Below, in pieces: positions 14,787 to 56,341 of a stretch of DNA of 64,000 nucleotides. The stretch comes from an uncultured Planctomycetota bacterium (GTDB lineage Bacteria; Planctomycetota; Planctomycetia; Gemmatales; Gemmataceae), in contig CAWKHF010000012.1 in assembly GCA_963849325.1 (NCBI GenBank), positions 672,001-736,000 of the forward strand, written 5' to 3'. The notes below the pieces were generated by a model. That model was not told the origin of the DNA. It saw only the letters and a program-made list of their open reading frames with translations, and made no database searches. The translations under genes and the position numbers were made by a program. Numbering within the stretch: the stretch's first letter is position 1; every line of letters starts with the position of its first letter.

Positions 14787-15084
14787 GACGGCTTCTCGGC
14801 GGGAAGCTGAGCGAGAGGATGCGCAAGTGCGCAATCCGCAACACTCGCTATTTTGCGCAGGCTTGTTCAAGCCCGCAAGAGGCTGGCAAGAATTGTGGCT
14901 TCCAGTGCTAGGATTGAGAACGTCGCGCACGGTAAAGTCCGCAAGCTCGCTGGGCAGGGGTGTCCGCTGTCCCTTTTGCCTCGTGGCGCGGCCCCCTCCT
15001 CTGCGGAGCGACGGTCTTTCGGGTTCGCCATAGAATCTACCCGGAGACACGGCATTAAAGCGCCCCGCCAACGACAGGCCGATC

Positions 15085-16735
15085 ATGCAAGACACCACCA
15101 AGAAGATCCTCCGTTTGCTGCACCCGGACCAACAGGCGGACGTGCGCTGTGCCGCCGCCCTAGTACTCGGTGAGATCGGTGGCAAGGACGCCGAGTTGAC
15201 CCGCGCCCTGTGCGACGCCCTGAGCGACAGCGAGTCGCAGCTGCGCTTGCAGGTCATCCGCGCCGTGGGCAAGCTCAAGATCGAGGCGGCGCTGCCGCGA
15301 CTTGCTGGAACGCATCAAGGAGGGCGGCGAGGAGGCGGAGCAGGCGGCGCAGGCGGCGGCGAAGCTTGGGTCCAAGGGCAGCCGCGCCCTGCAAGAACTG
15401 ATGCCGAAGGTCGCGCCGGGGCTGCGGCGTTACATCGCCTCGGCGCTGGCGGCGGCCGGCACCGCCAGCGCCGAGACGGCGGCCGTCGCCGTGCTGCTCG
15501 ACCGAGACCCCGGCGTCGTCGAGGCGGCCGTGCGCTCGCTCAGCGCCCAGGTCCACACGCTGACGCCGGCCCATCGCAAGGCGCTCGCCGACCAACTGCT
15601 GGAACTGGCGAATAATAAGAGAGAGCCGCTGGCCCCGGCGTCCGAGTCGGCCGTGCTGCGTCTGCTGGCCGGGCTGGATGACCCGCGGATCGAGGCAGTG
15701 CTATGGGAGCGCATCGTCCCGCCGCATCCGCCGGAGGTGCGCGCCGCCGCCCTGCAAGCGCTGGGCAAGTGGGCGACTTCGCCCGGCAAGGAACAGCTCA
15801 AACGGCTGTTCGCCTGCGCCACCGAGACGGATTTTCGACTGGCCGCGCCGGCGCTGGTGCTGCTTGAAGAACCTGCCGGTCGGCGATCGCGCCGTGTCGG
15901 AGTGGCTGACGCTGTTGCAGGCGGCGGACGTGGCGGTGCGCAAGCTGGCGATGGAGAAGGTCGGCGACCGCGACAACGCCGAAGTGGCCGACGCCCTCTT
16001 GCGACAGCTCGACCACCCCGACCGCTCGCTGCGCGACGGCGCCCTGGCCCGGCTGGCGCGGCTGAAGAAGGGACAGCAGGCGTTGACGGACGCCCTGCTC
16101 GAAGCGGACTCGCCCGAACGGGCATGGGTGCTGGCGCGGCGCAGGCGCCATTCGCCCGCAAGTATCCGCCGGATTGGCGTGAAAAGGTGTTCGCGCAAGC
16201 ATGTGAATACCTGGAGGCGAACGACCGGCGGGCCGACGCGCTGTTGTTTCTGCTGCGCGAGGCCGACGCCGTCGAGCTACGCGATCGGCTCGAACAGCGC
16301 GCCATCCACTGGCGCAAGAAGAAGGCGTATGAGAAGGCCTTGCTGTATCTGCGGCTGCTGATCCGCGATCCGTCGAGCGGCTTTCCGATCCGCCTGGAGT
16401 TGGCGTGCTGCGGCCTGAAGGTGTCCAGCCACGACTTGTCGCCGGAGGCGCGGACGAATGATCCGTGTCTGCAACAGTTCGCCACGCTCTGCCAGGGCTA
16501 CGAGGCCGAGCTGTCGGCCGAGCTGAAGAAAATCAAGTGGCTGGAGGCGGAAGATCTGTATTACCTGGGTTTTCACTTCGCGGAACAGGTAGGACAGCAA
16601 AGACAATTCGGCGGCAAGGTGCTGCGATGGATGGTCAAGCGCTCGCCGCGGACGAAACTGGCGCAGTCGGCGAAGAGCAAGCTGCGCGGCGCGGGGCTGG
16701 AACAGGTCACCGTCGCGGTGAAAGGGAACTCCTGA
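15085..16735 (+). CDS. HEAT-repeat protein (three frameshifts)
   Basis: DVRCAAALVLGE, EVRAAALQALG, AVRKLAMEKVG spread over ORFs 15085, 15302 and 15678. Confidence 0.8.
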
Positions 16736-27500: not shown

Positions 27501-28764
27501 TTACTGCCCTTTCATGCTCTCGATGAGAATGCGGGCCGTTGAGGGCCGCATGACGCGCGGGTCGGGCAGCTCGCCCTTGCGCAGCGTCTCGCGGAGGATG
27601 CGGCCGGCGATGGTCACTTGCTTGTAGCCCTTCGGCTCGTACTCCTCGACCAAGCCGACGCGGCCCAACTCCTCGTAGTACGCCGCGAAACCGATCTTCA
27701 CCGGCTTGATGAGCAGTTCGCCCTTCAGCTCGTCGAACTTGCGCTGCGCCGCCAGGCCGTCCCAGATGTCCTTGCCGTCCTCATACGGCGCGTCGGCGTG
27801 CTTGCGGCCGATGATGATGTCGGTGAAGCCGAAGTTCTGCCGATAGATGGCGTGCATGATCGCCTCCTTCGGCCCACCGTAAAACATCTTGATGTCCAGG
27901 CCCAAGAAGAATAATGCGATCCGTAATGTCGCAGCCGGTCTTCTTCCAGAGTTCTTCGTCCTTGTCGCCTTCGCCCAGCGCCTTGCTCTCGATCAGCGCC
28001 CGGTAGGTGCGCATGCGCGTGACGGCGTTGACGTCGTCGCCCTTGGTCTCGCCGACCAGCGGATTGAGCACGGCGCCGGCGAAATGGCCCTCGCGCACCA
28101 GTCGTTCCAGGCCGGCGACCAGGGCGTACTCGTGGGCGCGGTGCAGCGGATTGCGCGTCTGGAAGGCGACGACACGCTTCCAGCCCTTGTCGCGGAACAG
28201 TGCCCGCGTCTGGCGCGGCGACAGGATGAACTGCCCGTATTCGGGATGTTTCGGCTGCGGCAGAACGCGCACCGTGCCGCCGAGCAGATGCGTGCGCGGA
28301 TCGCGCTCTGACCATGCGGCCGCCCGGATGATCGAAACGCTCGGTGCCGTAGACGCTGCGGACGTAATGGGCCTTGTCCCACGCAAACACGTCGCTGATC
28401 GTCAAGCGAGCCGACCACTTCGTTCTGCGGATTGACCAGGGCGACGGTCTGTCCCGCCTTCAGCGTCTTCGCCTGCGCCTCGTCCACCGGGAACGACAGC
28501 GGAATGGTCCAGGCGTATTTCTTGCCGTCGTGGACGATCACTTCCTCGTCGAGGACGCGATTGAACGTCTCGCGGTCCATCGGGCCGGTTAGCGGACTGA
28601 GGCCGCCGTCGCCGAGACGGTACAGCGTCGAGAGGTCGGCGTCGCTGACGGACACGCGCGGCAGCGACGCCGTGCGGGCGCGGAAGTCCGCCGCTTCCTC
28701 GGCGGGGACGTTGACGATTGACGGGTTCGCTCAGCCCGCCGTGCGGCGGAATCAAATCGGACAT
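27501..28764 (-). CDS. sat: Sulfate adenylyltransferase (Sat type), frameshifted
   Basis: [56 protein letters not shown]. Confidence 0.93.
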
Positions 28765-31136: not shown

Positions 31137-33110
31137 TTAGTTGCAGCAACTCCCGCAAGAGGAGTTGCCGCAAGGATCGCAGCAGGTCGGCGTGCAGCAG
31201 CAGCGGCGGCTGAACAGCTTGCTCATCCAGCCGGACTTCTGGCAGCAGCAGGGCGAGCAGCAGCACGGCGTGCAGCAGGTGTTGCAGCAGCAGGCCGGCT
31301 GGCAGCACGTCGTCGGGCAGCACGTCGTCGGGCAGCAGGTCGTCGGGCAGCACGTCGTCGGGCAGCACGTCGTCGGGCAGCACGTCGTCGGGCAAGCCGG
31401 AGCATGGCAGGCCGGGGCCGGGCACGCGGGGGCCGGGCAGGGGTCGCAGGCCACCGGCACACGGCGGCAGCGCTGCACGCACACCTCGACCGGCACGCAC
31501 GTCTTGACGCGCTTGCAGACCGTGCAGGGCACGCACTCCGTGACCGTGTACGGCACCTTGCAGTGGACCGTGTACGGCACCTGCGTGCAGACCGTGTAGG
31601 GCACCTGCTTCATGACCGTGCACGGCACCATCTCGCAGACGGTGTAGGGCACCATCTTCTTGACCGTGTGCGGCACCATGCGGCAGACGGTATAGGGCAC
31701 CGTCTTGACGTGCTGCTCGGTCACCGTGCGCCAGACGGTATAGGGCACCTGCTTCTTGCACACCTCGGCCACCATGCGGCAGCTGGTCGTGGTGTAGCTC
31801 GTGGTGTAGGTCGCGCCGCACACGAACCTCCGGCCGGAGGGCGAAGCGGTGCCGGGAGCGGAGGCGGAACCGCAACCACCGGCGCCGGGGTCGCCATGAC
31901 CGACGCCCTGAGCGTCCACCCAGGCGCCCTTGCAGCAGCGCACGACCGTGTACGGCACCTGCTTCTTGCACACCTGGGTCTCGTAGCGCGTGACCGTGTA
32001 CGGCACCTTCTGCACCGTGGTCACCGGCACCATCTTGCAGACGGTGTACGGCACCTTCTTGACGACGGTGTAGGGCACCTTCTTGCAGACGGTGTAGGGC
32101 ACCATCTCGGTGACGCACTGCTTGACCATCTTGGTGCAGGGCACCGGCTCGCAGATGGTGCGGCATCTTCATGACCTGGCGGGTGCACATCTGGTCGGGG
32201 CACTTGATCGTGCAGCGCTGCCAGTGGCCCTTCTGCTGCTGGCACGCAGCAGGTGCAGGGGTCGAAGCAGCAGCTATCGCAGGTACGCTGCCAGACGTGC
32301 TTGGTCTTGCCGGGCACGCAGTACGTCTCGCAGCAGCACTCCTTGACCTTGCGCGTGACCGTCTTGCAGGTCGTGACCGGCTTGCAGATCGTCTTGGTGC
32401 ACGGCTTGTAGCAGGTCTCGATGCAGTCGCGGTAGCAGGTCTGGCAGCACTCCTTGTAGCAGGTCTGGTAGCACGGCTTGCAGGTGGTGCAGCAGACTTC
32501 CTTGACGCACTGCACGCAGACCGGCTTGCAGACGGTGTAGCAGCACTCGCGGCAGCACGTCTCGCAGAACTGATGGCAGGCCTGATGGCAGGCCTGGTGG
32601 CAGTGCGTCTCGTAGACCGGCTTGCAGACCGTGTAGCAGCACTCGCTCACGCAGCACTCCGGCACGCGCTTGCAGGTCGTGTAGCAGCACTGCTTGTAGC
32701 AGGTCTCGTAGCACGGCTTGCAGCAGGTCTGGCAGCACTTCCTTGTAGCAGGTCTTGTAGCACGGCTTGCAGCTCGTGCAGGGCACTTCCTTGTAGCAGG
32801 TCTGGTAGCAGGCTTGATAGCAGGTCTTGCACTCGTCGCGGTAGCAGGTCTTGCAGACCTGCTTCATGACGGTCTCCTGGACCGTCTGATAGCAGGTCTG
32901 CCAGCGTTTCTCCAGAACGGTGTCGTAGACCAGCTTGTAGCAGGTCTTGCACTGTTGCTGGCAGGTCGGGAAGCAGCACTGGGCGTCGCAACACGGCTGC
33001 GGACAGCAGCTGTAGTTGGAGCAGCCGCAGTGCGCTGCCGCCGCATACTGGACGACCCCGAACAGGCCGACCATCGCAGCCAGCAACGGCGCTCCCAAGC
33101 GCATCCTCAT
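31137..33110 (-). CDS. Secreted Cys-rich YTV-repeat protein (~650 aa, frameshifted)
   Basis: Signal peptide MRMRLGAPLLAAMVGLFG..AAA; CYK/CCYTVCKP repeats, then many VPYTVC repeats, then a CCPTT tail. Confidence 0.85.
31301..31394. repeat. 15-bp coding tandem repeat x6
   Basis: ggcagcacgtcgtcg units (one variant) encoding (CPTTC)n on the minus strand. Confidence 0.9.
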
Positions 33111-34288: not shown

Positions 34289-36076
34289 TCACCTTGTCAT
34301 CTTCACGGGCCGGCGCGAGCGACGGTAGATCGGCTCGTCGTACCAATGCCGGGTACGTTCGTGGTCGGCGACCCAGCGCAAGGCCCGTTTGAGAAACAGG
34401 CGCGACATCAGCCAGAAGATGAGGGCCAGGCCGAGCACAGGTCAGGAGGAAGAACACGCGATGGTCGAAGGAGACGAACGGGTTGGCGCTGGTGCTCAGT
34501 TGCGTGCCGAGCTGCGCGATCGATGGCCCCGAGCAGGGCACCGAGGATCACGGCCGCGATGGCGAGGATCGGCGTGGTACCCAGATAAATGGCCAGTCCG
34601 CCGACATAGCCGGCCGCCATCGTACCCAGCAAGGCCCGCCACGAGCTGCGCGAGCGAACCGAGGCCCACAGCCCCGCCGCCCCGATGTAATACATGGCCA
34701 ACACGGTGACGGCCAGCCACAGCAGCACCCAGCACAGGGCCAGCACGCCGCCGAGGACCGACAGGACGACGGCCGGCGCCGCGTAGGCCAGCAGGTAGAC
34801 GTAGCTGGCCCCCATGATGCCCCAGAGCTTGCCGCGGATCAGCTGCTTGGCGCTGAGCGGCGTCAGCAGCAGGGCCTCCCAGGTCCGCCGCTCGCGCTCG
34901 CCGGTGACGGCGCCGGAGCAGCGGATGCCGACAACCAGGCTGGCCAGCAGCATGACCACCAGCCCCTGCACGAGGAAGCCGTCGCCAGCCGCGGGCATCC
35001 GGACGGTCAGGCGCTCCGGCTGGAAGTGGACCAGCGCCAGGATCAGGTCGCCGGCGCGGACACCGGACGGCAGCGACAGCAGTAGGATCAGCAGCGACGA
35101 GGCGATGGTGAGGGTGGAGACGCCGGCGACGGCGAGCCACGGCGGGACGCGGCGCAGGCCCGGCGTCGGCGCCAGCCCCTCGACGTGCCACTCGCGCCAG
35201 CGGATCGGCTCGTCCGCACCGGCGCGGCGCAGGGCGTTGTACCAGCGCACGGCCCGCGATCGGACGTTTTCCAACTCTCTCCGGTAGGCCGGCCGCAGTC
35301 GTCCGATGGCCAACGCCAGGCAGGTGCCGCCCAGCGTACCCCAGCACAACGACGACACGAGCAGGCGCCGACCCAGTTCGGCGAGGTCCAGACTTTGCCA
35401 CGTCCCCCACGCCGGCGCGACAACCGCAAGAGGGTTGAGGTAATCGAAGGGGCCACGGAAATACCAGACGAGCACGCCGCCGAGGGTGCCGAGCACGTAC
35501 AGGGCGAGGACGGCGTCGCGCGTCTGCCGGCACAGGACGGAGGCGAGCGAGACTGACAGATGCCAGCGCGAACAGCGGCAGGAGCAGGGCGACGGCCACG
35601 GCCACAAGCGTCACGGGCTGCACGCCGCCGAAGCCGGCCAGCAGGGCGAACAGCGGCAGCCCGGCCAGGGCCACCAGCGACACCTGAGCGACCCGGCCGA
35701 GCAGCTTGCCGAGCAGGATGTGCCGCGCTTCCAGGTCCGCCGTTAGCAGATATTGCAGCGTGCCGCGGCGCTTCTCGTCGGTGATGGAGCCGGCGACGAA
35801 GGCCGGCGTCGCCAGGACCAGAACGATCAACTGCTGGGCCACGAACGTTTCGGCGAACCATTGGCCGACGATTTCCGGGGCCGAGGCGCGGGCGACGAAG
35901 GAAGACGTGTTGGCGACGAGCCGTCCCCTCAGCCGGGTCGCCTCTTCATTTTCATACCGGACGTATCCGTAAAAAACCAGCACGACGAGCCAGCCGGCGT
36001 AAACCCAGCGGAACAGGTACAGCCGATGGCGGCGACTGCCGAGCAGCCATTCCTGATGCAACACGGCGCCAACCAT
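34289..36076 (-). CDS. ABC-2-type transporter permease with duplicated domain (frameshifted)
   Basis: AGSITDEKRRGTLQYLLT...ILLGKL and GAVTGERERRTWEALLLTPL...LIRGKL. Confidence 0.85.
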
Positions 36077-36346: not shown

Positions 36347-37286
36347 TCAAGAGGAGGACGATTCCGGCCGCATTCGCCGTGACACGTCGCGGAGCCGGCT
36401 GAGCTGCTGCACGAGGAGAGGGACGCCGCCGAGGCCGCCGGCGAACAATTGGACGTACCGGAAGATCGCCACGACCGAGCCGCGTCGGCGCCCCCCGTAG
36501 CACAGGAACGCAGGAGCGCAACCGCCATCAGTCCCAGCACGAACACCTCCATCCGCCCGAAATTAAGTGCCTCCCCGTCCGATAGCGCCACGCGCCACGC
36601 GCCAACATGCGATAGTGTCGCCGTACCTCGCGTGGCCGCCCTCGACCGATCGCGTCCACCTCGCGTTCCAGCTGGTCGTTGAGCCGGCCATTCAGCCGTA
36701 GCATCTGACGGCCATAGGAGCAGTTGAGGCTGTACAGCGGGAGCAGCAGCGACAAACACAACGGCACCATTACCCAGTCATAGAGGGCGAGCATGGCGGC
36801 GGCGCCGGCCAGCGAGTACAGCACCTCCAGGGCGACGGGCACGTCGCGCTCGAAGAAGGACACCATCTCGCGCGACAGGGCCGACCGCGCCGCCAGCCGC
36901 GACAGCTCGACCCGCCCCCGCTGCGCGAGGACCAGCCGGCTGGCCAGGTCGGTGTAGATGTGGCTGAAAGCGCGCGTGTCGTACATGCGCCGCCCGCCGC
37001 TGAGCAAGACGTAGACGGCGTGCTGGAGAACGAAAAACAACAGCCCTCGGTAGGAAGCGCCCAGGAGGTCGTGCACGGCCAAGCCCAGCACGAAGGGATG
37101 CGCCAGCCGGGCCAGGTTCTCCAGGGTGAACAGGCCATAGGTCAGCAGGATACGTCGGCGGTGGATACGGAACAACGCGCGGAGGCCCGTTAGCTGCGGT
37201 TGGCATCCTGGCGTCGTTAGGCCGCCATCGTCCGCGACGGCGGCCGCCGTCGCCTCGTCGGTCGTAAGCTCCAGTGTCGTGCTCAT
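36347..37286 (-). CDS. ABC transporter six-TM membrane domain without ATPase (frameshifted near the 3' end)
   Basis: TYGLFTLEN, RRMYDTRAF, SREMVSFFERDVP, LNDQLEREV; ends VPLLVQQLSRLRDV...* at 36347. Confidence 0.75.
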
Positions 37287-37314
37287 GGATCATCTCCCCT
37301 TGAGACTTCCACAC

Positions 37315-39219
37315 TCATCCCGAGACCAATGCGCGCTCCGCCCTGGTCGATTCGTGCCGTCCGTCCGGGCGGATCACTCGGCTCGGAACGGGCCGCTGCT
37401 CCAGCCAGCGCGGTAACAAATCCAGCCATTTGACGATGGACAGGGTGTTGTCCAGGCTGATGGCGCCGTGCGGGCTGCTGATGCCGAGCGCGGCTTGATG
37501 CAGACAGCTCAGCAAGGAGGCCTTGTCGAAGAGGCCGAGTTCCTCGGAAGGCGACGCACGGATCAGCTGCTCCAGGTAGGCCTGGTTTCGTGACAGGCCG
37601 GTGTAATAGACGGAGTTGTAATGCGTCTTGCCGCGGCGCTGGCGAATGTTCGCGGGGAGGACGTCGCGCATCGCCTCGGCGAGGATCGGCTTTTGCGCCC
37701 CCGGCTCCGGCCGAACGTGGACCCGGATGCCCAGTGCGTAGCGGAAGACGCGCAGGTCCCGAAACGGATGGGCCGCGACAATGCCGAGCGGCGCCGCCAG
37801 CGTGTACCGGCCCCAATCGCCGACGGCCGAACGAGCCCGTTCCAGTGCCTCGGATTGCACCACGGTGCCGGCTGCATGGAAGTGCCGGCGAACGTTGTTC
37901 AGCGCCCGGTCGCGCAACTGACCCCGGCGGGCGAAGTCGGGGAGGACCCAGGGAGCGATCGTCCAAAAATTCTGATGCTTCCAGTCGGCGTAGCCTTGGT
38001 GAAACAAGGCACGCAGGCCCACTTGCGCCCACGCGGGCATCAAAGGAGTCAGGCCACAGGGACGAAGGACGCTCCAAATACTGCTGTTGCGGGCCCGCGC
38101 CCACCGACACGACTCGGACCAGGCAGCCCCCAGACGCCCTCGCCGGAGCAGATCGGCGATTCGGAACGGTCGCTGGGCCAGCATTTCGTCGGCCCCCGTG
38201 CCGGTGAGGACCGTATCCGCGCCCACCGCGGCTGCCGCTCGCAGCAAAGCCCTCTCCACGCCGACTCGTTGCAGCCCCGGGATCGGCTCGTCATGCAAGG
38301 GCATATCGTGGAACACATCGAAGTCCAGGATGTTGTCGGCAGGAATTCGGTGCGCGACCAGGCCAGGCCGGTTCAGGGCCTCTTCCAGAAACGGCGTCTC
38401 GTTGTGGAGGTTCGCCAGGCCCTGGTACGTCAGCGACAGGGTGTGCAGGGGACGACCTTCGCGGACGAGTTCCTCGCGCGCCAGCAGGGCGACCGAGGTG
38501 GAGTCCATCCCGCCGGAAAAATGCGCGGCCATGCACCCCTTCAGCCGTTCGCGTACCGCTTGACGAAGCAACTGACCGTACTGGTCGGCAAGTTCGGTGG
38601 TACAGGCGGTGCCGGGGTCCACGGCTCGTTCGGGCCATTTCCAGAACTCGTGCTGCCCCACCGTGCCTCGCGGCAGATCGGCCGTGATCGACCAACCGGG
38701 TACCAGTCGCCGCACGCCCTCGAACACGGTCCCCTCGAAGTAGTCGATCTCGAAATTGGGCAGCATCAGCATCTCGCCCAGGAACTCGACGTTCAGCGCG
38801 CGGCGGGGCAACCGATCGACGAGCGGTCGAAGGCCGGTGGCGAAGGCGACGGTTTCGCCCTGATGCAACCAGTAGATCGGATATCCACCCATCGCCTCCC
38901 GGGAAGCAAGCAGGTGCCGCTGCTTGCGGTCCCAGATCACGAGAGCGAAATCGCCTTCCAGCTGCTCGACGCCGGCAAGCCCCCGGTGGCGGTAGGCTGC
39001 CAGGGCCAGGTCCGCATCGCCGACAGGACTTCGATCGTCGCCGGCATCCGGCAAGCGCGCCTTCAGCTCACTCCGATAGTAAAGCCGGCCCATGAGTACG
39101 GCCTGGCAATCCCGGTCGGCGGCCCAGGTGACCAGATGCGGACGACCGGGATGATCCGGGCCGAAAACGTGAAATTCCACCATGTCGCCCCGGGCGACGA
39201 CCATGAAGCCAACTTGCAT
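37315..39219 (-). CDS. Lasso peptide cyclase (asparagine synthetase-like, C protein)
   Basis: LEGDFA, HFSGGMDS, VLTGTGADE, HPFRD, KPILAEAM; no N-terminal catalytic Cys; directly downstream of the B gene. Confidence 0.88.
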   Translation of the reverse strand: MQVGFMVVARGDMVEFHVFGPDHPGRPHLVTWAADRDCQAVLMGRLYYRSELKARLPDAGDDRSPVGDADLALAAYRHRGLAGVEQLEGDFALVIWDRKQRHLLASREAMGGYPIYWLHQGETVAFATGLRPLVDRLPRRALNVEFLGEMLMLPNFEIDYFEGTVFEGVRRLVPGWSITADLPRGTVGQHEFWKWPERAVDPGTACTTELADQYGQLLRQAVRERLKGCMAAHFSGGMDSTSVALLAREELVREGRPLHTLSLTYQGLANLHNETPFLEEALNRPGLVAHRIPADNILDFDVFHDMPLHDEPIPGLQRVGVERALLRAAAAVGADTVLTGTGADEMLAQRPFRIADLLRRGRLGAAWSESCRWARARNSSIWSVLRPCGLTPLMPAWAQVGLRALFHQGYADWKHQNFWTIAPWVLPDFARRGQLRDRALNNVRRHFHAAGTVVQSEALERARSAVGDWGRYTLAAPLGIVAAHPFRDLRVFRYALGIRVHVRPEPGAQKPILAEAMRDVLPANIRQRRGKTHYNSVYYTGLSRNQAYLEQLIRASPSEELGLFDKASLLSCLHQAALGISSPHGAISLDNTLSIVKWLDLLPRWLEQRPVPSRVIRPDGRHESTRAERALVSG

Positions 39220-39236
39220 GACAGGGATCTCCGTAA

Positions 39237-39325
39237 GAGGCACTAACAAAATGTGGCAACACGTTTTCAACGTGTTGGATTGTACGGCACGTTACAAACG
39301 TGCCGCCACATTCGGTTCGTGCCTC
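39237..39325 (+). mobile_element. 89-bp MITE copy 1, TAA-flanked
   Basis: taa-GAGGCACTAAC...GTTCGTGCCTC-taa with internal cacgttt/aacgtg palindromes. Confidence 0.85.
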
Positions 39326-39331
39326 TAATGC

Positions 39332-40111
39332 TCATTGATAGCGAAGTGCTGGGATGTACGAGACGCAGTTTTCCGCGTGGTCGCTGACGATCCAGGGTCC
39401 GGCCTCGCACCAGCAATGGCCGGAGAGGGGAAAGAGTTCGACGCCGATCACCAGGGCGGCCGGCAAGCCGGCGAGACGAGCCAGGACCCAACAAGAAAGG
39501 GCACGTTCCTTGCAAGCCACGCCGAACGGGTTCCAGGCCGCCGCGCTGCAAACCGCGTCATCGATGGCCCGGACCCGCGCCTCCGCTTGGCGCGGCGAAA
39601 GACGAAGCGGACGGATCGGGAACTGCCGTCGCCAGGCGGCGATCGTCCGGGTCCAACCCAGGGAGGCGAGGCAAAGCTTCGCCGCGGTCAACAGCACGGC
39701 GGCTCGGGCCTTCAGTGAGGGCGTCCAACTGAGGGTCCGGTTCAGCATTCCAGCCGCCAGGCACGTCTTGCCGAGGTTTTCCAATCCTCGGCCGGCGCCT
39801 CCTCGATTCCGCCAGAGAATGCCCCGCTTCTCCAGGGTCGCCAGAAAGTGCCTCAAGTCGGCTTCCACCTGAGAGCACGCGACGTCGTACTCGGCCGCCA
39901 CACGCTGGACGGCGGCCGCAGGCCCGTGCTGGAGTGTCTGCCGCAGCATCAGGATTGCGGCGGGTGGAACAGCATAAAAGCGGTCTGCCATATCCAAAAT
40001 GCGGGCACTGCCGTCCGCCATCGGAATGACGGCCACATCCGGCGCCAGGGAATACTCCAGGCCGTTGTTGGTCGCGGTTTGCTGCCGACAGAGAATCGTT
40101 TGGGTGGACAT
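39332..40111 (-). CDS. Fused lasso B1 (PqqD-like RRE) and B2 (transglutaminase-like leader peptidase)
   Basis: ARILDM..RFY, VAAEYDV...VEADLRHFLATLEKRGIL (RRE); CKERAL, LVIGV, HCWCE (B2 Cys-His). Confidence 0.92.
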   Translation of the reverse strand: MSTQTILCRQQTATNNGLEYSLAPDVAVIPMADGSARILDMADRFYAVPPAAILMLRQTLQHGPAAAVQRVAAEYDVACSQVEADLRHFLATLEKRGILWRNRGGAGRGLENLGKTCLAAGMLNRTLSWTPSLKARAAVLLTAAKLCLASLGWTRTIAAWRRQFPIRPLRLSPRQAEARVRAIDDAVCSAAAWNPFGVACKERALSCWVLARLAGLPAALVIGVELFPLSGHCWCEAGPWIVSDHAENCVSYIPALRYQ

Positions 40112-40181
40112 GATATTACCTCTCTCGTCAACAAGGCCCGTTGGAAAAGGACGCCGTACTTCGCCAAGGTTGGGACCGTAA

Positions 40182-40270
40182 GAGGCACTAACCGAATGTG
40201 GCGGCACGTTTGTAACGTGCCGTACAATCCAACACGTTGAAAACGTGTTGCCACATTTTGGTAGAGCCTC
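40182..40270 (-). mobile_element. 89-bp MITE copy 2, inverted
   Basis: Its reverse complement matches copies 1 and 3 with only a few substitutions near the ends; flanks are taa/gaa. Confidence 0.85.
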
Positions 40271-40333
40271 GAAGGGACCCAATAGCTCGGCACGTAAAGG
40301 GCATCCTCATCCAACGAGTCCGGTTGCTTGGGA

Positions 40334-40525
40334 TCACCAGTAGCGGGTGCGGTTGGCGTCGGAGTAATTGCCGCCGCCGCCCCCCTGCACCAGCTCGACC
40401 GCCTTGCCGACGTCGTGCAGTTCCGGAGTGTGATACGCGCGGGGCGAAACCAGGCTGTCCTGCCGAGTCTCGGTCCCCTCGACGGAAGCGACCGGACTAC
40501 CCAACTTGAGATCTTTGGCCAACAT
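40334..40525 (-). CDS. Lasso precursor A2 (63 aa); predicted core GGGGGNYSDANRTRYW
   Basis: AGGAG RBS; leader YHTPELHDVGKAVELVQ (YxxPxLxxxG); core Gly1 with Asp9. Confidence 0.85.
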   Translation of the reverse strand: MLAKDLKLGSPVASVEGTETRQDSLVSPRAYHTPELHDVGKAVELVQGGGGGNYSDANRTRYW

Positions 40526-40635
40526 GACGTTCTCCTGTTCAGGATAAGTGTGGCAAGCCGGCATCAGGGCCCCTTGCTCCGATGATCTCGTCCTGCCGCA
40601 GTCACAAAGAGTCCGTTGCGAAGAACACCGTCCGA

Positions 40636-40824
40636 CTAATACTGGCGGGCGCGGTTGTTGTCGGCGACATTGCCGCCGCCCCCCTGTACCAGTTCGACCG
40701 CCTTGCCGACGACGTGCAGCACAGGGGCGCGATAGACACGAGGCGCGTCCGGAGCGTCCTGCTTCCTCTCGGCCGTCCCGGCGAAGGCATTCTCGACACT
40801 CGACGTGAACTTGGTGGGAACCAC
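40636..40824 (-). CDS. Lasso precursor A1 (62 aa); predicted core GGGGNVADNNRARQY
   Basis: AAGGAG RBS and GTG start; leader YRAPVLHVVGKAVELVQ; core Gly1 with Asp8. Confidence 0.85.
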   Translation of the reverse strand: MVPTKFTSSVENAFAGTAERKQDAPDAPRVYRAPVLHVVGKAVELVQGGGGNVADNNRARQY

Positions 40825-41091: not shown

Positions 41092-44000
41092 ATGTTCGCT
41101 CCAAGGTCTCGTGCCTGGTTCGTCATCGGAGCGTGGATCGTGGTTCCCTCGCTCTGGGCCGAAACACCAAAACCACCTCTGACACCCGAAAAACAAGCGA
41201 AGTTGGAGGAGCGCGACCGTCATCTGGCGAAGGCGCGGACGCTCTTCTCGGAGGGCAAATTGGCCGAGACGCTCGCCGTCGTCGAAAAGATGCTGGCGCT
41301 GGATCGTCAATTATTTGGCGATGCGCACGACGACACGGTGGAAGCGCTGGAGTGGCTCGCCGAACTGTACGAGCTAAGGGAAGACTTCGCCGCCGCGCGC
41401 AAGGCTCGTGGAGAGGTTGTGGACATCCAGGCCAGGATGCACGGCCCAGACAGCCCTCTCGTCGCCGGTGCCCGCCTGGCCCTGGAGCACGTCGATCGCC
41501 TGGAGAAGCTCGACAGGGATCAGCGCCGGCTCCTGGCGGAAGCGGGCCCACTGCTGGCGCGGATGCACGCTCTTATCCAGGCCAACAAGCATCGCGACGC
41601 CATTCCTGTGGCGGAGGAAGCACTGGCCAGGCGGCAGAAGGTGCTGGGTGAACCGCACTGGCTCTGCGCCGAGACGCTGGCGACGATCGGATTCTTGTAC
41701 CGGCGAACCGGCGATCTCGTCCGGGCGGAGCGGTGCTATCTTCGTGCCCGCGACATCCGTAAGCGGACGCTGGGCGAGACACACCCCGATTACGCCATCG
41801 TCCTCAATAACCTGGGCACCCTCTACCTTGTGCAGCGGGATTACGACCGAGCCGGGACGTTCTACCGACAGGCGGCGACGGCCTTGAAGCAATCGCGGGG
41901 AGAGAAGCACCACCAGTATCTTATGGCCGTGACCAATCTCGCCTTCGTCCATCGGCAAAGGGGCGAATACGACGAGGCGGAGAAGCTCTACCGCGAGGTC
42001 CTCGACGCCAAACGGCAGACGCTAGGGGAAAAGCACGCCGACTACGCGAGCGCCCTGGGCGATCTGGCGGAATTCTACATGACTCGGGACACCCCCGCTG
42101 GCGCAGAACCGTTGGCGCGTCAGGCGCTGGACATCTTCCGGGAGGTCCAGGGCCAGCGCGATCCCCAGACACTTTACGCTCTGAACCGTTTGGCCAATGT
42201 CTACTGGAGGATGAAGGACTACGCCAAGGCCGAACCGCTCTATCGCCGGGTGGTTGAGGTCCGCAAGGAGACGGTGGGCGAGAAACATCCCGATTACGCG
42301 GCGAGCCTGAACAATCTCGCGCTGCTCTACGCGAATAAGGGCGAGAGCGAGCGTGCCGAGCCGCTCTTTCTGCGGGCGATGGAGATCACCCGCCAGACGC
42401 AAGGGGAAAAGCACCTCGGATACACGACCCAGCTCCGCAACCTGGGACGCCTCTATCAGGACGAGAAACGGTACGACAAAGCCCTGCCGCTCTTGCAACA
42501 GGCAGCGACCCTCCACAAGGAGTTACTGGGCGAGAAGCATCCATCCTACGCGACCGCGCTGAACGACCTGGCCATGCTGTACGTGGACCTCAAGAAGTTC
42601 GCTCAGGCCGAGCCAATCTTCCGGCGGCTTCTGGCCATCCACAGAGAGACGGTCGGCGAGAAACACCCCGACTACCTCGGCAGTCTCCGAAGCCTCGGAC
42701 TCCTGCTGGAGGACCAGGCCCGGGAATACGAGTCCCGCGACGACCTGGCGTCGGCTCGCAAGGCACGTCAGGAGGCACTGTCGATCCACACCAAACTGGA
42801 TGGCGGCCGGCACTGGCGGACGGTCGATGCGCGCCTGCGGCTGGAATTGCTCGAACGTCTGGGGCCATGGGACCCGGAGCGGCGCCGGCAGTTGCGCGAA
42901 ACGGAAGGCGTGTTGAGTCGGGCTTGGGAGCTGAAGAATCGCGGCAAGGATCGAGAGGCCGTGCCGCTGGCACAGCAAGCGCTGCAGGTCCGGCAGCAGC
43001 TATTGGGCGAAGACCACTGGCTGACGGCCGATGCTCAGACAGGGCTGGCTTCCGCTCTCACCGATGGCCGGGAATACGCGCGGGCGGAACCGCTTTACCA
43101 GCGCGCACTGACGACCTCGCAAAAGGTCCTGGGCGAACAGCATCCCGATTGCGGCTACCTGCTGCATCAACTCGGCTTCGTCCACGAAAACAGGGGCGAG
43201 TATGCTCGTGCCGAGCGGAGATACCAGGAAGCCCTCGACATTCGCGGCCGCGTGCAGGGCCAAAAGAACCGCTCCTATGCCACGACCCTCGGCAACCTGG
43301 CCGCGCTGTGCCGGATTCGGGGAGACTATGCACGGGCCGAGCGGCTGGGCCGGGAGAACCTGGAACTCCGGGAGCAAGTGGTTGGCCGACACCATCCGGA
43401 TTACGCCCTGAGTCTGATGACCCTGGCCTGGCTCGCCGAGCACCGGCGCGATTACGTGCAGGCGGAGAAACTGACGCGCCAGGCCCTGGACATCCGCACG
43501 AAGGCCCTCGGCGAAGCTCATGCCCAATGCGGGGAGTGTTGGAATCTGCTCGGCGACGTAGCCTGTTACCGAGGCGACTTTGCGCGAGCGGAGTCGCTGC
43601 AACAACAGGTCCTGGCGATCTACCGCAAGGCGCAAGGAGAGAAGCACCCGGATTGTGCCTGGCCCCTCACGAACCTGGCCGAAATCTATTCGAAAACAGG
43701 CCGTTTTCTCCAGGCGGAGACTGCCAACCGTGAGGCCCTGGCGATCCTCCGCCAGTCTCTGGGAGAGAAACACCCGCGCTACGCTCGGCTCCTGCACGAA
43801 CGGGGCGCCCTGTACCGCCACATGGGCAAGCCCGCACAGGCCGAGGCGCTTCTTCGCCAAGCGCTGGCCATTCACAAGGAGACGCTCGGCGAGAACCACA
43901 TCGAGTACGGCAACACCCTGTCCGAGCTGGCGTCGCTGGCCAACCACCAGGGGAGATACGTCGAGGCCGAGGCGTTGTATCGCCGCGACCTGGCGATCCG

Positions 44001-47000
44001 CAAGCAAGCCCACGGCGCGAAGACGAGCGATTACGCCATCATCCTGAGCAATCTGGCGATCGTCGCGGACAACCGAGGTGCCTACGCCGAGGCGCAGTCT
44101 CTGCACGAAAGCGCCCTCGCCATTTACAAGGAGCTGGGACGAGAGAAGCATCCCGATTTCGCTACCGCCCTGAATAACCTGGCCTGCGTGTGCGACCACA
44201 AGGGCGACTACGCGCGAGCCGAAGGCCTGTACGCGCAGGCCTTGGCGATCCGCAAGGAAGTGCTGGGGGAGTCCCATCCGGATTACGCCCTCAACCTGAA
44301 TAACCTGGCGTCTCATTATCGCTCCCGCGGCGAGCTGAAGCGATCGGTGGCGCTGGCGCGAAAGCGCTGGAGGCGAGGCGGCGGGCCGTGGGAGAGAAGC
44401 ACCCCGACTATGCCCTCACCCTCAACAACCTGGCCATGAACCTGTATGAGGACATGGGCGAATATGCCGAGGCCGAACGACTCCTGGGACAAGCCCTGGC
44501 GATTCGCAAGGAAGTGCTGGGGGACAAGCATCCCGATTATGTCAATTCGCTGAGCAGCCTGGCCGGCTTCCATCAGACCAAAGGCGAGTACACCCGCGCC
44601 GAGACCTTGTACAAGGAAGTGGTGGCGACCCGCAAGGAGATCCTGGGCGAACGCGACCTGGAGTACGCCTCCGCTCTGAACCGTCTCGGCCAGCTCTATG
44701 TTCACATGGGAGATACTCTCCGCGCGGAGCCTCTTCTGCGGCAGGCGCTGGCGATTCGCAAGGACATCCTGGGCGAGCGGCACCGTTCCTACGCCCAGAG
44801 TCTCTACGAGCTGGGCAAGATGTACCTCGCCAAGGGAGATTACGTTCGCGCCGAGCCGTTCTGTCGCCAGGCGCTGGAGGTTGATCGGAAGACCCTCGGA
44901 GCGAAGCATCCCTCCGTGGCGAACAGCCTGTCCCTGCTCGCCACGCTTTACCAAGAGATGGGGGATTACGCCCGCGCCGAGGCCTTCGTGCTTCAGGCGC
45001 TGGCGATCGACCGGGAGGCGCTGGGGGAGCAACATCCCGCTTACGCGATCACCTTGACCAACGCGGCGATCCTGTACAGCGCCCGAGGCGATTACCAACA
45101 GGCCGAACGGATGACGCGGCAAGCGCTGGCGATCCGAGAACGGACCCTGCCCAGGAAGCACCCCTCGTATGCCAACAGTCTCAACAGCATGGGGGCCCTG
45201 TGTCGCCGCCGGGGCGATGACGCCGCGGCCACGGAATACTACCAGCGCGGTCTGGACGTGTGGCAGCAGGTGTTCGGGCAGGACAACGTGCATTGCGCGG
45301 TTGGTCTCCATAATCTGGCCGTGTCCTCTATCTACCAGCGCGATTGGCAGAAGGCGGAGTCGTATCTCCAACAATCCCTCCGGATTCGCAGAGCCGTGCG
45401 AGGCGAATTCGATCCGGCCGTTGCCGGCGACCTGTCGGACCTGGCCTTGCTCTCGTGGGTAAAGGGAGATTATCTCACGGCCGAGACGTTTTCTCGTCAG
45501 GCGGTCGAGGCCATCCGCCAGCACAACGATCGGCTCGCCGCTGTCCAGTCGGAGCGCCAGCAACTGGCTCGCGTTCATACCCTGCGCGATCTACTCGATC
45601 GCTACCTGTCCTTGACGGCGGAGGCGAACCTCGCCGGGGAGCAGGTCTATCCGCAGGTTCTGGCCTGGAAGGGGGCCGTCTCGGCTCGTCAGCGAGCCAT
45701 CCGCGCCCTGCAGCGCGCCACCCGAGGAGGCGACAAGCCGGAGGTCGCGCGGCTTTACCAGGATCTGGACCAAGCCACGCGGCGGCTGGCCGTCCTCTCG
45801 CAACTCGACGCCGCCGACCGCGACCACCGCCGCAAGGTCCAGGAACTCAGCGATGCGATTGAGCGACTGGAACGGAAGTTAGCCGAAATCAGCCAGGATT
45901 TTCGCCGACAGGTGGAGCAGCGACGGCGCACCGCCGACGATCTCCGTCGCGCTCTGCCAGCCGGCAGCGTGCTGGTCGATGTCTTGGTCTACGACCACGC
46001 CGTGCCGACCAAGGAAGGCCCGATGAAACTGATCACCGAAGTGCGCCTGGCCGCCTTCGTCGTCCGACCGGATCGGGATCGCATCGAGCGCGTCAATCTC
46101 GGACCGGCCCAGCCCGTCACGGAAGCGCTGAATCGTTGGCGGTTGGCCCTGCAACGACGCTTTCGCACCGAGGGAGACGCGCGCCTGTCCGCGGAAGTTC
46201 GCCGGCTGGTCTGGACGCCGCTGGAGAAGCACGTCGGAGACGCCAAACTCGTACTGATCTCCCCCGACGGAGCCTTGACTCGTTTCCCGTGGGCGGCCCT
46301 GCCCGGCGCGAAGGCGGACAGCTACCTGATCGAAGAGCGGGCCTTGGCGGTCATCGCAGTGCCTCAGCTGCTGCCCGACCTGCTCGCCGAGCGCGCCGGG
46401 CCGCCAGACGAGCCGTCGCTGCTTGTCGTCGGCGGCGTGAACTTCGACGCGGAGGCCGGCGCGGTCGGGGGCGACGCCCTGACGCGGTCGTCGCCGCGCG
46501 CGGCCGCGCGGGGGAGCCGTTCCAGTGGACGCGGTTGCCGGGAACGCTCCTGGAGATGCAGGCCGTGCGCGACACCTTCCGTTGCCGTTACCCGGCCGCC
46601 GGTTTGGTGGACCTCCGCGAGGACCGGCCAACCGAAGCGGCCGTGCGCCAGGCCATCGCCCGACATCGCTTCCTGCACTTCGCCACCCACGGCTACTTCG
46701 CCCCCAAGGAATTGCGCTCCGCCCTGGCCGAAACGTCGCGACGGCACGAACTGGAGACCGACGACCTGTCGGCGCGGCGAGACCTGGTTGGCTTCCATCC
46801 GGGCTTGCTGTCGGGCCTGGTGCTGGCCGGCGCCAATCGGCCGGTGCATCCCGAGAGAGACGACGGCATCTTGACCGCGTTGGAAGTGGAAGCGTTGGAC
46901 CTGACCGGCGTGGAGTTGGCGGTGCTGTCGGCGTGCGAGACAGGGTTGGGCGAGGAAAGAGCGGGTGGCGAAGGTCTGTTGGGACTGCAACGTTCCTTCC

Positions 47001-47296
47001 AGGTGGCGGGGGCGCGCGGCGTGGTGGCGAGCCTGTGGCAAGTGGACGACGCGGCCACGCGGAAGCTCATGACCGAGTTCTATCAGAACCTGTGGCAAAA
47101 GAAGCTGCCCAAGCTGGAGGCGCTGCGTCAGGCTCAGCTGTGGATGTTGAAAGAGGGTGAGGGCTGGATGCGTAAGGAAGGCATTCCCCGCGGCCTGATC
47201 GACGTGAAGGTGCCGCGCGAGCGGCTGGCGAAAGACGATGGTCGTCTGCCGCCGTACTACTGGGCCGCCTTCGCCCTATCCGGGGACTGGCGTTAA
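41092..47296 (+). CDS. Large secreted TPR-repeat CHAT-domain protease (~2060 aa; frameshifts near 44360 and 46510)
   Basis: Signal peptide; many 42-aa GEKHPDYA.SLNNLA repeats; LISPDGAL, LHFATHG, LAVLSACETGLG, VVASLWQVDD, PYYWAAF. Confidence 0.93.
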
Positions 47297-47385
47297 GAGG
47301 CTCTAACAAAATGTGGCAACACGTTTTCAACGTGTTGGATTGTACGGCACGTTACAAACGTGCCGCCACATTCGGTTCGTGCCTC
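47297..47385 (+). mobile_element. 89-bp MITE copy 3, inserted at the CHAT gene TAA stop
   Basis: taa-GAGGCTCTAAC...GTTCGTGCCTC-taa; one difference from copy 1. Confidence 0.85.
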
Positions 47386-47437
47386 TAAATATTCTATCCC
47401 AAGCGACTGCACCTGTCCTTACGACGACGCCTCGTGT

Positions 47438-50760: not shown

Positions 50761-53700
50761 TTACTCTTGCTGTAACTCGCGTAGGTTCGCCTCGATAGTC
50801 TGGATCTGCGTTTGCAAATCGGCCACGAGGTCGCGCTGCTGCTGCACGATCTCCTTCGGGGCGCGATCGACGAAGTTGGCGTTGCCGAGCTTGGCTCGCG
50901 CCGCCTGCACGTGCTTGAGCTTGTCCGCGAGCTGCTTCTGCAAGGCGGGCAATCTCCGCGGCCACGTCGATCAAGCCCGCCAGCGACACGTACAGCCTCG
51001 AACTCCGGCGTCACGTGCGTCGCCGCCTGGCGCGGCTTGGCCGTCTCGGGTCCGCACTCCAGCCGGCCGACACCGGCCAGGGCGGCAAGGAACGGCGCCA
51101 GCGTGCGGAAGTCCTCGGCCACCGCCTCGGAGCAACGCACGAACACATCAAGGCTCGTTTTCAGGTCCACATTGTAGCGATTGCGCACTTCACGCACGGC
51201 TCGGACCAACTCCTGCATGCGGCCGATGCGCGTCTCCATCGCCGAGTCCCGCCACGAGGCGGGAAGGCTCGGCCACGGAGCGATGACCACGCTCTCGGCG
51301 GCCGGCTCCGGCGCCGGCAGACCGCGCTCGAAGGCCGACTCGTTCAGCGCCTGCCAGACCGACTCGGCCACGAACGGCATGACCGGCTGCACCAGTCGCA
51401 GGATGCCGTCGAGCACGCCAACCAGTACGCGCTGCACCAGCGGCCGCGATGCTGCGTCTTGCAGGCGGCCCTTGCTCATCTCCACGTACCAGTCGCAGAA
51501 CTCCGACCAGGTGAAGTCGTAAATCGTCCGCGCCACCTCGCTGAAACGGTAGTTCTCCAGGTGCGCCGTCACCGCCGCCGTCGTCGTCGCCAGGCGGCTC
51601 AAAATCCAGCGGTCCTCGATGGGCAGTTCGTCGTGGCGGATCGCTCCCGGTTGGTAGCCCTCCAGGTTGAGAAACAGAAATCGAGCGGCGTTCCACAGCT
51701 TGTTGGCGAAGTTGCGGCCCATGTCGAAGCGCTCCGACGCCTGCCTGGCCGTGGGCAATTCCGGGTCGGGCGCCGGCCACGGGCCGCCGGGACGAAACGG
51801 CTTCTTGCACTCCGGGCACGTCACCTTGCGCGTCCGCATGTACATATGCTCCTGCTTGATGGGCACGAGCGTATCGCAGTGCGGGCACACATTGGCCACC
51901 GGCATCTTGCTGTCCTGCGTCTCCGTCGCCTGATGCACCATCAGAAAGCGAAGTGCGTCGGTACCGTAGCGCTCGATGATGTCGAGCGGGTCGATGCCGT
52001 TGCCCTTGCTTTTGCTCATCGTCTCGCCGAAGCCGTCGAGGATCTTCGGATGGATGTAGACGTGGCGGAACGGCACCTCGTCCAGGTTGTAGAGTCCGGT
52101 CATCACCATGCGCGCCACCCAGAGCGTGATGATGTCGCGGCTGGTCACCAGCACGCTCGTCGGATACCAGTAGGCCAATTCCGGCGTGCGCTCCGGCCAA
52201 CCGAGCGTCGAGTGCGGCCACAGCGCCGAGCTGAACCAGGTGTCGAGTACGTCCGGGATCCTGTTCCAGGGGATATTTCGGACCCAGCATATCGCTCGGA
52301 AGGTCTTCGAGGGAGCAGATGAGCCAGCGAGCGTTGGCCTCATCGAGCCGCCACGTCACGTCGTCGCGGCCGGCGAAGAGGCGTTTCAACTCGCTCTCGG
52401 GGCAGCTGGCGTACCAGATGGGAATGCGATGGCCCCACCACAGCTGCCGGCTGATGCACCAGTCGCGCTTCTCGCCGAGCCAGTCGAGATAGGTCTTGGC
52501 ATAGCGCTCGGGGGTGAACTGGACCCGGCCGTCCTTCACGGCATCGATGGCGCGCTGGGCCAGGCCCGCCTGTCCGTCGGCGTCGCCCATGCGCACGAAC
52601 CATTGATCCGACAGGTACGGCTCGATCGGCGTCTTGCTGCGGTCGCTGAGCGGGATGGTGTTCTCGATGTCCTCCTCGCGGTCGAACAGGCCGAGTTCCT
52701 GCAGGTCCGTCGACCACCCGGCGGCGAGCCTCGGTGCGATCGAGTCCGGCGTAGGAGAAGGCCCGGCCGCGGAATTCTCCCCTGCCGTTGTCGTTGATGG
52801 AGCCGTCGGGGTGGAGAATGTTGATCGGCGGGCCGGTGTCCTTGTGTCGTTCCCAGACGGCGTAGTCGTTGTAGTCGTGGGCCGGCGTGATCTTCACGGC
52901 GCCGGTGCCTTTCTCGGGGTCGGCGTAGCGGTCGGCGATCAGCGGCAACTTGCGGCCCAGCAACGGCAGTTCCAGGATGGTGCCGGCGCGGGCCATCTCC
53001 GCCAATTTCTCCAGATGCGGCAGCATCTCCTCGCGCCGGCGGCGCAGCCGATCGAGGCGTTCCTGGATGTCGCGGGCGTCCTTGTCGCCGGCCTTGGCCA
53101 GAGCGGTTTCCAGGTCGCGCTCGCGCCTGTCCAACTCTCGCGCCGGCTCGGGATGGACCGCCACGGCCGTATCGCCCAGCATCGTCTCCGGCCGTGTCGT
53201 GCCGATCAGCACGTGATCGAGGGAGCCGGATGCAGCCGACAAAACTGGATAGCGAAAGTAGTAGAATTTGCCCTTCTGCTTGACGTTCTCCACCTCGTCG
53301 TCGGCCACCGACGTTTGCAGCTGAGCGTCCCAGTTCACCAGGCGTTTGCCGCGAAAAATGAGGCCGTCCTTGAACATATTGAAAGAAGGTGGTGCGCACG
53401 GCGCGGCGCAGACCGGGTCCAGCGTGAAGCGCGTCCGCTGCCAATCGCAGCTGCATCCCAACTCGCCGAGCTGGCCGAGGATGCGTTTCTCGTACTGGTC
53501 CTTCCACTGCCAGATGCGTTGGACCAACTCCTCGCGGCCGAGGTCGTGGCGTGTCTTTTTTTCCTCGTCGCGCAGACGGCGTTCCACCACGGCTTGCGTG
53601 GCGATGCCGGCGTGATCGGTGCCGGGCATCCACAGGACGTCGTAGCCCTGCATGCGCCGCCAACGGATGAGCACGTCTTGCAGCGTGTTGTTGAGGGCGT

Positions 53701-53865
53701 GGCCCAGGTGCAGGCGCCGGTGACGTTGGGCGGCGGAATGACGATGCAGAACGGCTTGCGGTTGGGGTCGGGCCGGGCATGGAAGAAGCCGCGTTCGTTC
53801 CAGAAGCGCAGCCAGCGCTCCTGGGCGTCGCGGGGATCGTAGTGCTTGGGGAGTTCCATCGACAT
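50761..53865 (-). CDS. valS: Valyl-tRNA synthetase (several frameshifts)
   Basis: IPPPNVTG, PGTDHAGIATQ, TTRPETMLGDTA, GTGAVKITPAHD, DWCISRQLWWGHRIP, DVLDTWFSS, TMSKSKGN, NKLWNA. Confidence 0.96.
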
Positions 53866-54752: not shown

Positions 54753-56326
<1,574 letters not shown>

Positions 56327-56341
56327 GAATGATCCTGCAAC

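Follow-up and report, generated by a model that had tools for sequence, protein, structure and literature searches.

The window analysed here is a 64,000-nucleotide (nt) stretch of an uncultured planctomycete genome of the family Gemmataceae (assembly GCA_963849325.1, contig CAWKHF010000012.1, positions 672,001 to 736,000). Its minus strand carries, between 36347 and 40824, five co-directional genes: two short precursor genes (A1 and A2), a peptidase gene (B), a cyclase gene (C) and a gene for a transporter-like transmembrane domain (TMD). The first-pass annotation, made by a model from the DNA letters, had read this segment as a complete cluster for lasso peptides, a class of peptides that the ribosome makes and that are modified after translation (RiPPs), in a planctomycete-like genome. 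All five genes were recovered where it had placed them, at or inside the same spans (Table 1). Every feature of the lasso gene set that can be checked in the sequence was found, and the same gene order recurs in relatives. A, B and C each align to their relatives as a single segment, in agreement with the frameshift-free state ascribed to them. The transporter gene is broken between frames, and the word "complete" therefore hinges on whether its frameshifts are assembly errors, which is likely. The planctomycete origin is borne out by the family placement and by a nearby protein with a planctomycete YTV domain.

Table 1. Features of the cluster, with positions in the window (RRE, RiPP recognition element; ORF, open reading frame; MITE, miniature inverted-repeat transposable element; REP, repetitive extragenic palindrome)
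Feature	Position	Strand	Basis and remarks
A1 precursor	40636-40824	-	ORF, 62 aa; AAGGAG upstream; nine environmental homologues with near-invariant core
A2 precursor	40334-40525	-	63 aa; tandem duplicate of the A1 unit; eight further environmental proteins, seven with 16-aa core
104-nt palindromic MITE/REP-like repeat, A2-B spacer	40174-40277		Inverted repeat I1, hairpin, genome-wide dispersal
B, fused RRE and Cys protease	39332-40111	-	Pfam and NCBIfam scores, PDB match, invariant triad
Second 104-nt repeat copy, inverted, filling the B-C spacer	39230-39333		Ends 9 nt short of the C ATG
C, Asn-synthetase-like lasso cyclase, 634 aa	37315-39219	-	MQVGF N-terminus, SGGMDS PP-loop, B-linked cyclase clade
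PF13748 (ABC_membrane_3) six-helix transporter domain	36347-37286	-	Three frames via two 1-nt deletions; no nucleotide-binding domain

Peptidase and cyclase

Counted from the ATG that matches its relatives, B is 259 aa long and joins an N-terminal, PqqD-like RRE (approximately residues 20-98) to a C-terminal transglutaminase-like cysteine protease. It scored above cut-off with PqqD (PF05402; 28.3 bits, cut-off 23.4), with Transglut_core3 (54.9 bits, cut-off 26) and with the NCBIfam lasso B2 model NF033537 (57.1 bits, cut-off 33), and under the cut-off of 70 with the Streptomyces-specific RRE model NF033530 (25 bits). Residues 8-98 align to the RRE of TfuB1 (PDB 6jx3_B, E 7.3e-6), and the triad Cys200 (within CKER), His232 and Asp244 is invariant in all 21 aligned B proteins. 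The fusion of an RRE with a Cys/His peptidase proposed for this gene is thus upheld. The lasso B2 model matched one protein in the source genome, and B homologues were found in 3 of 200 other Gemmataceae genomes, and all 8 congeneric genomes searched were without one.

The predicted cyclase C begins with a conserved MQVGF, lacks Cys at position 2 and carries the SGGMDS PP-loop at residues 235-240, a motif invariant in all four aligned cyclases; the SGGxDS cyclase without the glutaminase Cys that had been described for this gene is therefore present. Its Asn_synthase domain (PF00733) scored 108 bits and its GATase domain (Pfam GATase_7) looks inactive. A Met-Cys start was likewise found in none of the 20 B-linked cyclase relatives whose match covers the N-terminus. 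The best NCBIfam matches were to a macrolactam cyclase (192 bits) and a lasso cyclase (175 bits), both under the cut-offs of the curated lasso cyclase models concerned (NF033535, 174.6 against 525 bits; NF033561, 192 against 300 bits), which are labelled subfamily or exception models.

A reference-genome scan with the four-cyclase alignment returned 33 cyclase loci, in 24 of which a B homologue adjoins the cyclase. We placed these 33 cyclases and C in a quick maximum-likelihood tree, keeping every row. The 25 B-linked cyclases, C included, formed one clade with a support of 100 in the Shimodaira-Hasegawa-like approximate likelihood-ratio test, and the nine without B fell outside it. C sits inside the B-linked clade, scores best against lasso and macrolactam cyclases and does not group with glutamine-dependent AsnB, the grouping that the first-pass annotation had considered as the alternative. 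Within the clade, C belongs to a four-row group (support 99) whose other members carry the labels Vineibacter, Alphaproteobacteria and Anaerolineae, and the cyclases of three other Gemmataceae lie apart from it at three separate positions. This scatter suggests that the cyclase has spread horizontally, with the reservation that labels of metagenome-assembled genomes are fallible and that multiple changes are no proof of transfer.

Two further observations concern the cyclase loci. Near-identical lasso clusters, with two or three precursors and Cys-containing cores, occur in two records labelled Alphaproteobacteria and Anaerolineae (L014 and L016; cyclase branch lengths 0.025 and 0.05), which points either to a binning error or to a very recent transfer. 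At another locus (L037, from 7751 onward), no B homologue adjoins the Asn-synthetase-like gene, and the small ORF that comes after this gene has a leader resembling YxxPxLxxxG (YHAPKLEDYG...ELTQ); the locus may represent a lasso-like system that has no recognisable peptidase.

Precursors and predicted peptides

The A1 gene starts with GTG, 7 nt downstream of a Shine-Dalgarno-like AAGGAG, and A2 starts with ATG inside a longer spurious ORF. A1 consists of a 47-aa leader ending in ...YRAPVLHVVGKAVELVQ and a 15-aa core, GGGGNVADNNRARQY, with Asp at core position 8; A2 consists of a 47-aa leader ending in ...YHTPELHDVGKAVELVQ and a 16-aa core, GGGGGNYSDANRTRYW, with Asp at core position 9. The two are 47% identical and have in common P-R-x-Y-x-x-P-x-L-H-x-V-G-K-A-V-E-L-V-Q followed by GGGG. 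Direct repeats D1, D3 and D4, spaced at 296-302 nt, show that the pair stems from a tandem duplication, the duplicated unit being about 299 nt long.

Searches of 5.8 billion proteins yielded 17 environmental relatives, giving 19 precursors with A1 and A2. All 19 contain Y..P.L...G, which we take to be the lasso leader recognition motif, followed by five residues, VQ and a core that starts with Gly. A 15-aa core, GGGG[NS][YWV]ADNNR[AS]RQY with Asp8, is present in 11 of them, and a 16-aa core, GGGGGNY[LS]DANR[ST]RY[YW] with Asp9, in the other eight. The leader N-termini diverge and the cores are near-invariant, which is the pattern expected for a selected mature peptide; A1 and A2 are, judged by these alignments, part of a real, conserved family. 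The two short precursors with YxxPxLxxxG leaders that had been called here are thereby confirmed, and the register of the motif and Gly1 with Asp8 or Asp9 are present as well. That two core types are kept nearly unchanged over 17 environmental sequences suggests that the products are genuine, under selection and directed at a specific target.

The pairing of the two types is probably conserved as well, since paired proteins were reported from contigs of equal stated size. This size is 60,365 nt for P0002 (A1-type), P0132 (A2-type) and the intact transporter P0012 of 319 aa, and 3,169 nt for two more precursors (P0005 and P0134). Other cores follow a similar leader end in one metagenomic locus (L008), in two Gemmataceae genomes (G138 and G109) and in 10 of the 24 B-linked loci. 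All 19 members of the precursor family have Val at leader position -2; among 13 precursors from the 10 B-linked loci, 12 have Val or Ile there, with Thr in none of those 12. Thr is the usual residue at this position of lasso leaders, and Val is tolerated there in microcin J25.

B is predicted to cut after Gln47, which would release a 15-mer from A1 with a Gly1-Asp8 ring and a 16-mer from A2 with a Gly1-Asp9 ring, the cleavage site, register and threading all being part of the prediction. Each predicted tail has seven residues, with two Arg and a C-terminal aromatic residue; the Arg pair and the aromatic residue could serve as plugs. With one water lost, the products have computed monoisotopic masses of 1529.7083 Da (A1) and 1711.7451 Da (A2), corresponding to [M+2H]2+ ions at 765.861 and 856.880, values that permit a direct search by liquid chromatography-mass spectrometry. 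The core substrings searched for were absent from the literature covered, the coverage of which excludes supplements, in line with the suggestion that both peptides are new.

Homologues of the precursors were sparse in genome data. A precursor pattern scan of genome contigs gave 87 matches, of which zero were confirmed; the precursor profile matched 1 of 200 other Gemmataceae genomes, and weakly; and the metagenome scan returned two short loci only (L008 and L009).

The transporter gene, the spacer repeats and probable assembly errors

The ORF at 36528-37286 matches PF13748 with 148 bits, a single frame covering profile positions 1-197 of 237. When the 319-aa relative P0012 (89% identical) was aligned to the window by tblastn, it matched in three frames, which places one deletion of 1 nt near 36597 and a second near 36480. 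A search for sequencing runs listed one DNA run (X1, share 0.05) and no RNA run. At 36597, one additional base in a contig from X1, belonging to a relative of about 90% identity, restores the reading LARWRVALS; this contig stops short of the 36480 site. The membrane exporter domain noted in the first pass thus exists as a type IV exporter-like PF13748 domain, but it reads in three frames. Similar breaks affect other genes of the window. By profile coordinates, leuS (50997-53722; tRNA-synt_1) and leuA (54789-56329; HMGL-like) are each split over three frames, and an ATP sulfurylase (27513-28239) and the CHAT domain of a TPR-CHAT protein (41092-47230) over two. Since essential single-copy genes such as leuS and leuA cannot truly be broken, and since the completeness of the genome is a mere 84.7% in 14 contigs, these indels are most likely assembly errors. 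Both transporter frameshifts are most likely assembly errors too. The pattern points to indel errors throughout this assembly, and a broken gene in it should not be taken for a pseudogene. HEAT repeats at 15058-16301 and an ABC-2 permease at 34408-36076 are also frame-split, with consecutive Pfam coordinates. The permease ORFs lie downstream of the cluster and were considered as possible members; they were left out because related loci have no counterpart.

The two repeats that flank B are 91% complementary and are predicted to fold into hairpins of -56.4 kcal/mol (z -7.6) in the A2-B spacer and -53 kcal/mol (z -7.7) in the B-C spacer. Across the genome their 17-nt arm pattern was counted 46 times (23 per strand), at about 24 sites, 22 of which have both arms. 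It was found in 6 of 30 related genomes (1-5 occurrences each) and in 4 of 53 loci, all four from the source genome, leaving 0 of the 49 loci of other genomes. The contig of the relative of about 90% identity joins 39234 to 39332, with GGGGCT in place of the B-C repeat. Dispersal through the genome and absence between B and C in the relative indicate that the two copies flanking B are mobile MITE/REP-like insertions specific to this genome rather than lasso machinery, and a lasso-specific RNA element, considered as an alternative, was rejected on the same grounds together with the absence from loci of other genomes. The hairpins may change how stable the mRNA is or how well it is read through into B and C, and would be dispensable for the pathway. 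A third copy of the repeat lies at about 47290-47390 in the window, and the hairpins of the three copies range from -48 to -56 kcal/mol. A promoter and terminator scan gave zero promoter-like sites and two terminator-like sites, both inside C and below shuffled counts.

An AlphaFold model of P0012 built with 57 homologues (confidence scores pLDDT 87.5 and pTM 0.82) has six long helices. The top rows shown by Foldseek were type IV ABC transporter chains, with weak E-values from 4e-3. In the VIA structural comparison the best row reached Z 14.5 and the lasso exporter McjD (4pl0) Z 12.2, with a root-mean-square deviation (rmsd) of 3.0 over 189 residues, in a range (Z below about 13) that by the tool's own caution may be generic for helical bundles. 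SbmA was discarded as the closest fold, as it ranked 23rd, beneath true ABC exporters. P0012 consists of PF13748 only and has no fused ABC_tran domain. When 1.84 billion representatives were searched by profile with no filter on length, 1083 family matches were obtained at E<=0.001 (398 at <=1e-30); the best 150 of the 1083 were all <=371 aa long, and a nucleotide-binding domain was present in none of these 150. No ABC_tran gene was found near the transporter gene in the window or directly downstream of it in five relatives; one B-linked locus (L036) has a full ABC gene 2.2 kb from its PF13748 gene.

PF13748 is not confined to lasso clusters; in the genomes sampled it was found in 4 of 200 other Gemmataceae and 19 of 400 Planctomycetia. 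The order B-C-TMD recurs on one strand in two other Gemmataceae (G022 and G109; genome search placed both, and G138, in the window's own family). PF13748 also directly follows C in six of the 24 B-linked loci (L013, L017, L020, L023, L026 and L036), five of which are among the nine labelled Planctomycetota. Among 21 PF13748 loci outside the window, 14 encode an MNIO protein (PF05114), a partner and PF13748 on one strand, one is a lasso B-C-PF13748 locus and six are neither; when G022 and G109 are added, PF13748 ends a peptide-maturation operon in 17 of 23 loci (3 lasso, 14 MNIO). Its position at the end of operons of two unrelated RiPP chemistries supports a role in RiPP export or producer immunity, energy coupling being left aside. 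In the literature searched, PF13748 was named in just two papers, both on subjects other than RiPPs. A transporter family without an ATPase domain at the end of two kinds of RiPP operon lets one ask how some RiPPs exit the cell.

Two sets of loci are of interest in themselves. In Planctomycetia (L052-L059, L062, L065 and L069-L072), co-directional genes encode an MNIO (PF05114, the family of MbnB, TglH and ChrH), a partner of about 270 aa without a Pfam match and, last, PF13748; this trio looks like an undescribed RiPP operon type. At L064:6782-8746, a PF13748 gene and a stand-alone ABC_tran gene diverge from each other, back to back, and sulfotransferase-like and methyltransferase genes come next; this arrangement hints that some PF13748 proteins use an ATPase in trans.

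Interpretation of the cluster

The minus-strand genes are probably co-transcribed. By homology, the N-terminal RRE of B would bind the YxxPxLxxxG motif in the leaders of A1 and A2, and its C-terminal Cys/His/Asp protease would cleave after the invariant ...ELVQ to expose Gly1. C, with ATP at its SGGMDS PP-loop, would adenylate the side chain of Asp8 in A1 or Asp9 in A2 and then link it to the Gly1 amine around the pre-folded seven-residue tail (D-x-N-R-x-R-aromatic). The PF13748 protein would export the peptides or protect the producer; it is probably dimeric and has the fold of a type IV ABC exporter, with no ATPase domain. We consider it highly probable that a canonical class-II-type lasso peptide cluster with two precursors, together with these steps, assembly-error frameshifts and mobile repeats, explains the locus. 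The chemistry of the cluster is ordinary, and its unusual point is a transporter gene without an ATP-binding motor domain.

The predicted pathway is a canonical one in a lineage without a characterised example. It stands out by a conserved design with two peptides, by the Val at position -2 of the leader and by the ATPase-less transporter, and it would bring new lasso chemistry from an unmined phylum. The first-pass annotation knew of no characterised lasso peptide from this lineage, and none was found for planctomycetes in the literature searched, which does not extend to the RODEO survey and supplements. The planctomycete lassopeptide literature that was found appears to consist of genome or metagenome mining studies, and a few non-canonical triculamin-like cyclases in Planctomycetota are mentioned in PMC12070363.

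Set beside known systems, the gene logic of the cluster, with a precursor, a fused RRE and Cys protease B, an Asn-synthetase-like C and a membrane exporter, is that of proteobacterial lasso clusters. In those for microcin J25 (McjABCD) and capistruin (CapABCD), B is likewise fused, and the predicted Gly1-to-Asp/Glu isopeptide ring of 8 or 9 residues also corresponds; the TMD model of the window family matches McjD. Unlike in these clusters, the fourth gene here encodes a TMD of about 320 aa with no nucleotide-binding domain, the two precursors represent two conserved types, Val replaces Thr at leader position -2, the ring is mostly Gly and the cores have no sequence similarity to theirs. The alignment of the N-terminal domain of B to TfuB1 links it to the fusilassin/fuscanodin system of Thermobifida fusca (TfuA, B1, B2, C), an actinobacterial system in which B1 and B2 are separate, whereas they are fused here. 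Several precursor genes for one B/C pair are also a feature of the caulosegnin and astexin clusters. These have an isopeptidase and a TonB-dependent receptor instead of an exporter, neither of which was seen in domain scans of the window. SbmA/BacA (PDB 9g3d), an importer of peptides including microcin J25, resembles the TMD in having an ABC-exporter-like membrane domain without a fused ATPase (Z 10.3, rmsd 3.6, 182 residues); however, it belongs to another Pfam family, and true ABC exporters matched more strongly than SbmA, whose score is in the possibly generic range.

Several points weigh against a canonical lasso cluster with a dedicated exporter. In the assembly the transporter gene is disrupted, and the read evidence for its repair comes from a relative of about 90% identity and not from the window organism. 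As many as 18 of the 24 B-linked loci have no PF13748 directly after C (one of them, L034, has a partial match elsewhere in the locus), most PF13748 genes are located outside lasso clusters, and the structural match to McjD carries the caution given above. Leader position -2 departs from the usual Thr, and C falls under the cut-offs of both curated lasso cyclase models. Strong hairpins in both spacers flanking B could block expression, and the cluster is known here from its genes alone.

If C were an ordinary glutamine-dependent asparagine synthetase accompanied by small ORFs of chance origin, its Pfam GATase_7 and Asn_synthase domains would be accounted for, as would its PDB match to AsnB (1ct9), which is weak at E 9.8e-5. 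The missing Cys2, AsnB scores far under their cut-offs (TIGR01536, 122 against 267 bits; NF006949, 56 against 499 bits), the adjoining lasso B2 protein above its own cut-off and the 17 conserved homologues of the small ORFs make this extremely improbable. A decaying cluster, in which the transporter is a true pseudogene, mobile hairpins sit in both B spacers and hardly any peptide, or none, is produced or exported, would fit two 1-nt deletions inside about 120 nt of one gene, the intact transporter of relatives (P0012 and the X1 contig), the relative without the B-C repeat and the scarcity of B homologues in the genus and family, as for a dispensable, patchy trait. Such decay is quite improbable, however, since the essential leuS and leuA of the same window are equally frame-broken, which makes the indels a property of the assembly, and since A1, A2, B and C are intact across about 3.1 kb.

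Other alternatives leave the enzymes in place and concern their products or the transporter. The run of four or five Gly offers several candidate N-termini, the tails have just seven residues and the topology of the products is predicted from sequence alone. Cleavage or ring closure might therefore occur in another register, for example one Gly later in A2 so that both rings have eight residues, or the peptides might be unthreaded and branched-cyclic. We think this unlikely, as the distance from YxxPxLxxxG to the first Gly is constant in all 19 sequences and the extra Gly is kept in all eight type-2 cores, as expected if ring size counts. It is also rather unlikely that the PF13748 protein does not export these peptides, being instead a neighbour with no relation to the cluster, a protein for import or sensing, or a membrane half with its ATPase encoded elsewhere. 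In favour of this are the lack of a nucleotide-binding domain in the best 150 family representatives and of an ATPase gene nearby, the divergent stand-alone ABC_tran gene at L064, strongly conserved residues in the cytoplasmic loops and the six of 21 loci in which the queries used found no RiPP enzyme; against it, PF13748 directly follows C on the same strand in the window as in the six B-linked loci, and MNIO plus partner in 14 of the 21 other loci, and thus tracks maturation operons of two unrelated chemistries. More tentatively still, and going beyond the canonical lasso cluster that we favour, PF13748 could be a dedicated, undescribed class of RiPP transporter with an ABC-exporter fold and no ATPase domain, recruited independently by lasso and MNIO (MbnB/TglH/ChrH-type) operons and perhaps ATP-free, for example proton-coupled as SbmA but outward-directed, with the A1/A2 pair (poly-Gly rings of eight and nine residues and a DxNRxR-aromatic tail) perhaps forming a two-peptide system; we regard this combination as possible but doubtful.

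Elsewhere in the window, two adjacent minus-strand ORFs at 31137-33110 encode Cys/Tyr/Lys-rich repeat proteins. One of them carries the planctomycete YTV domain (PF07639), and the second shows an apparent frame change near 32742.

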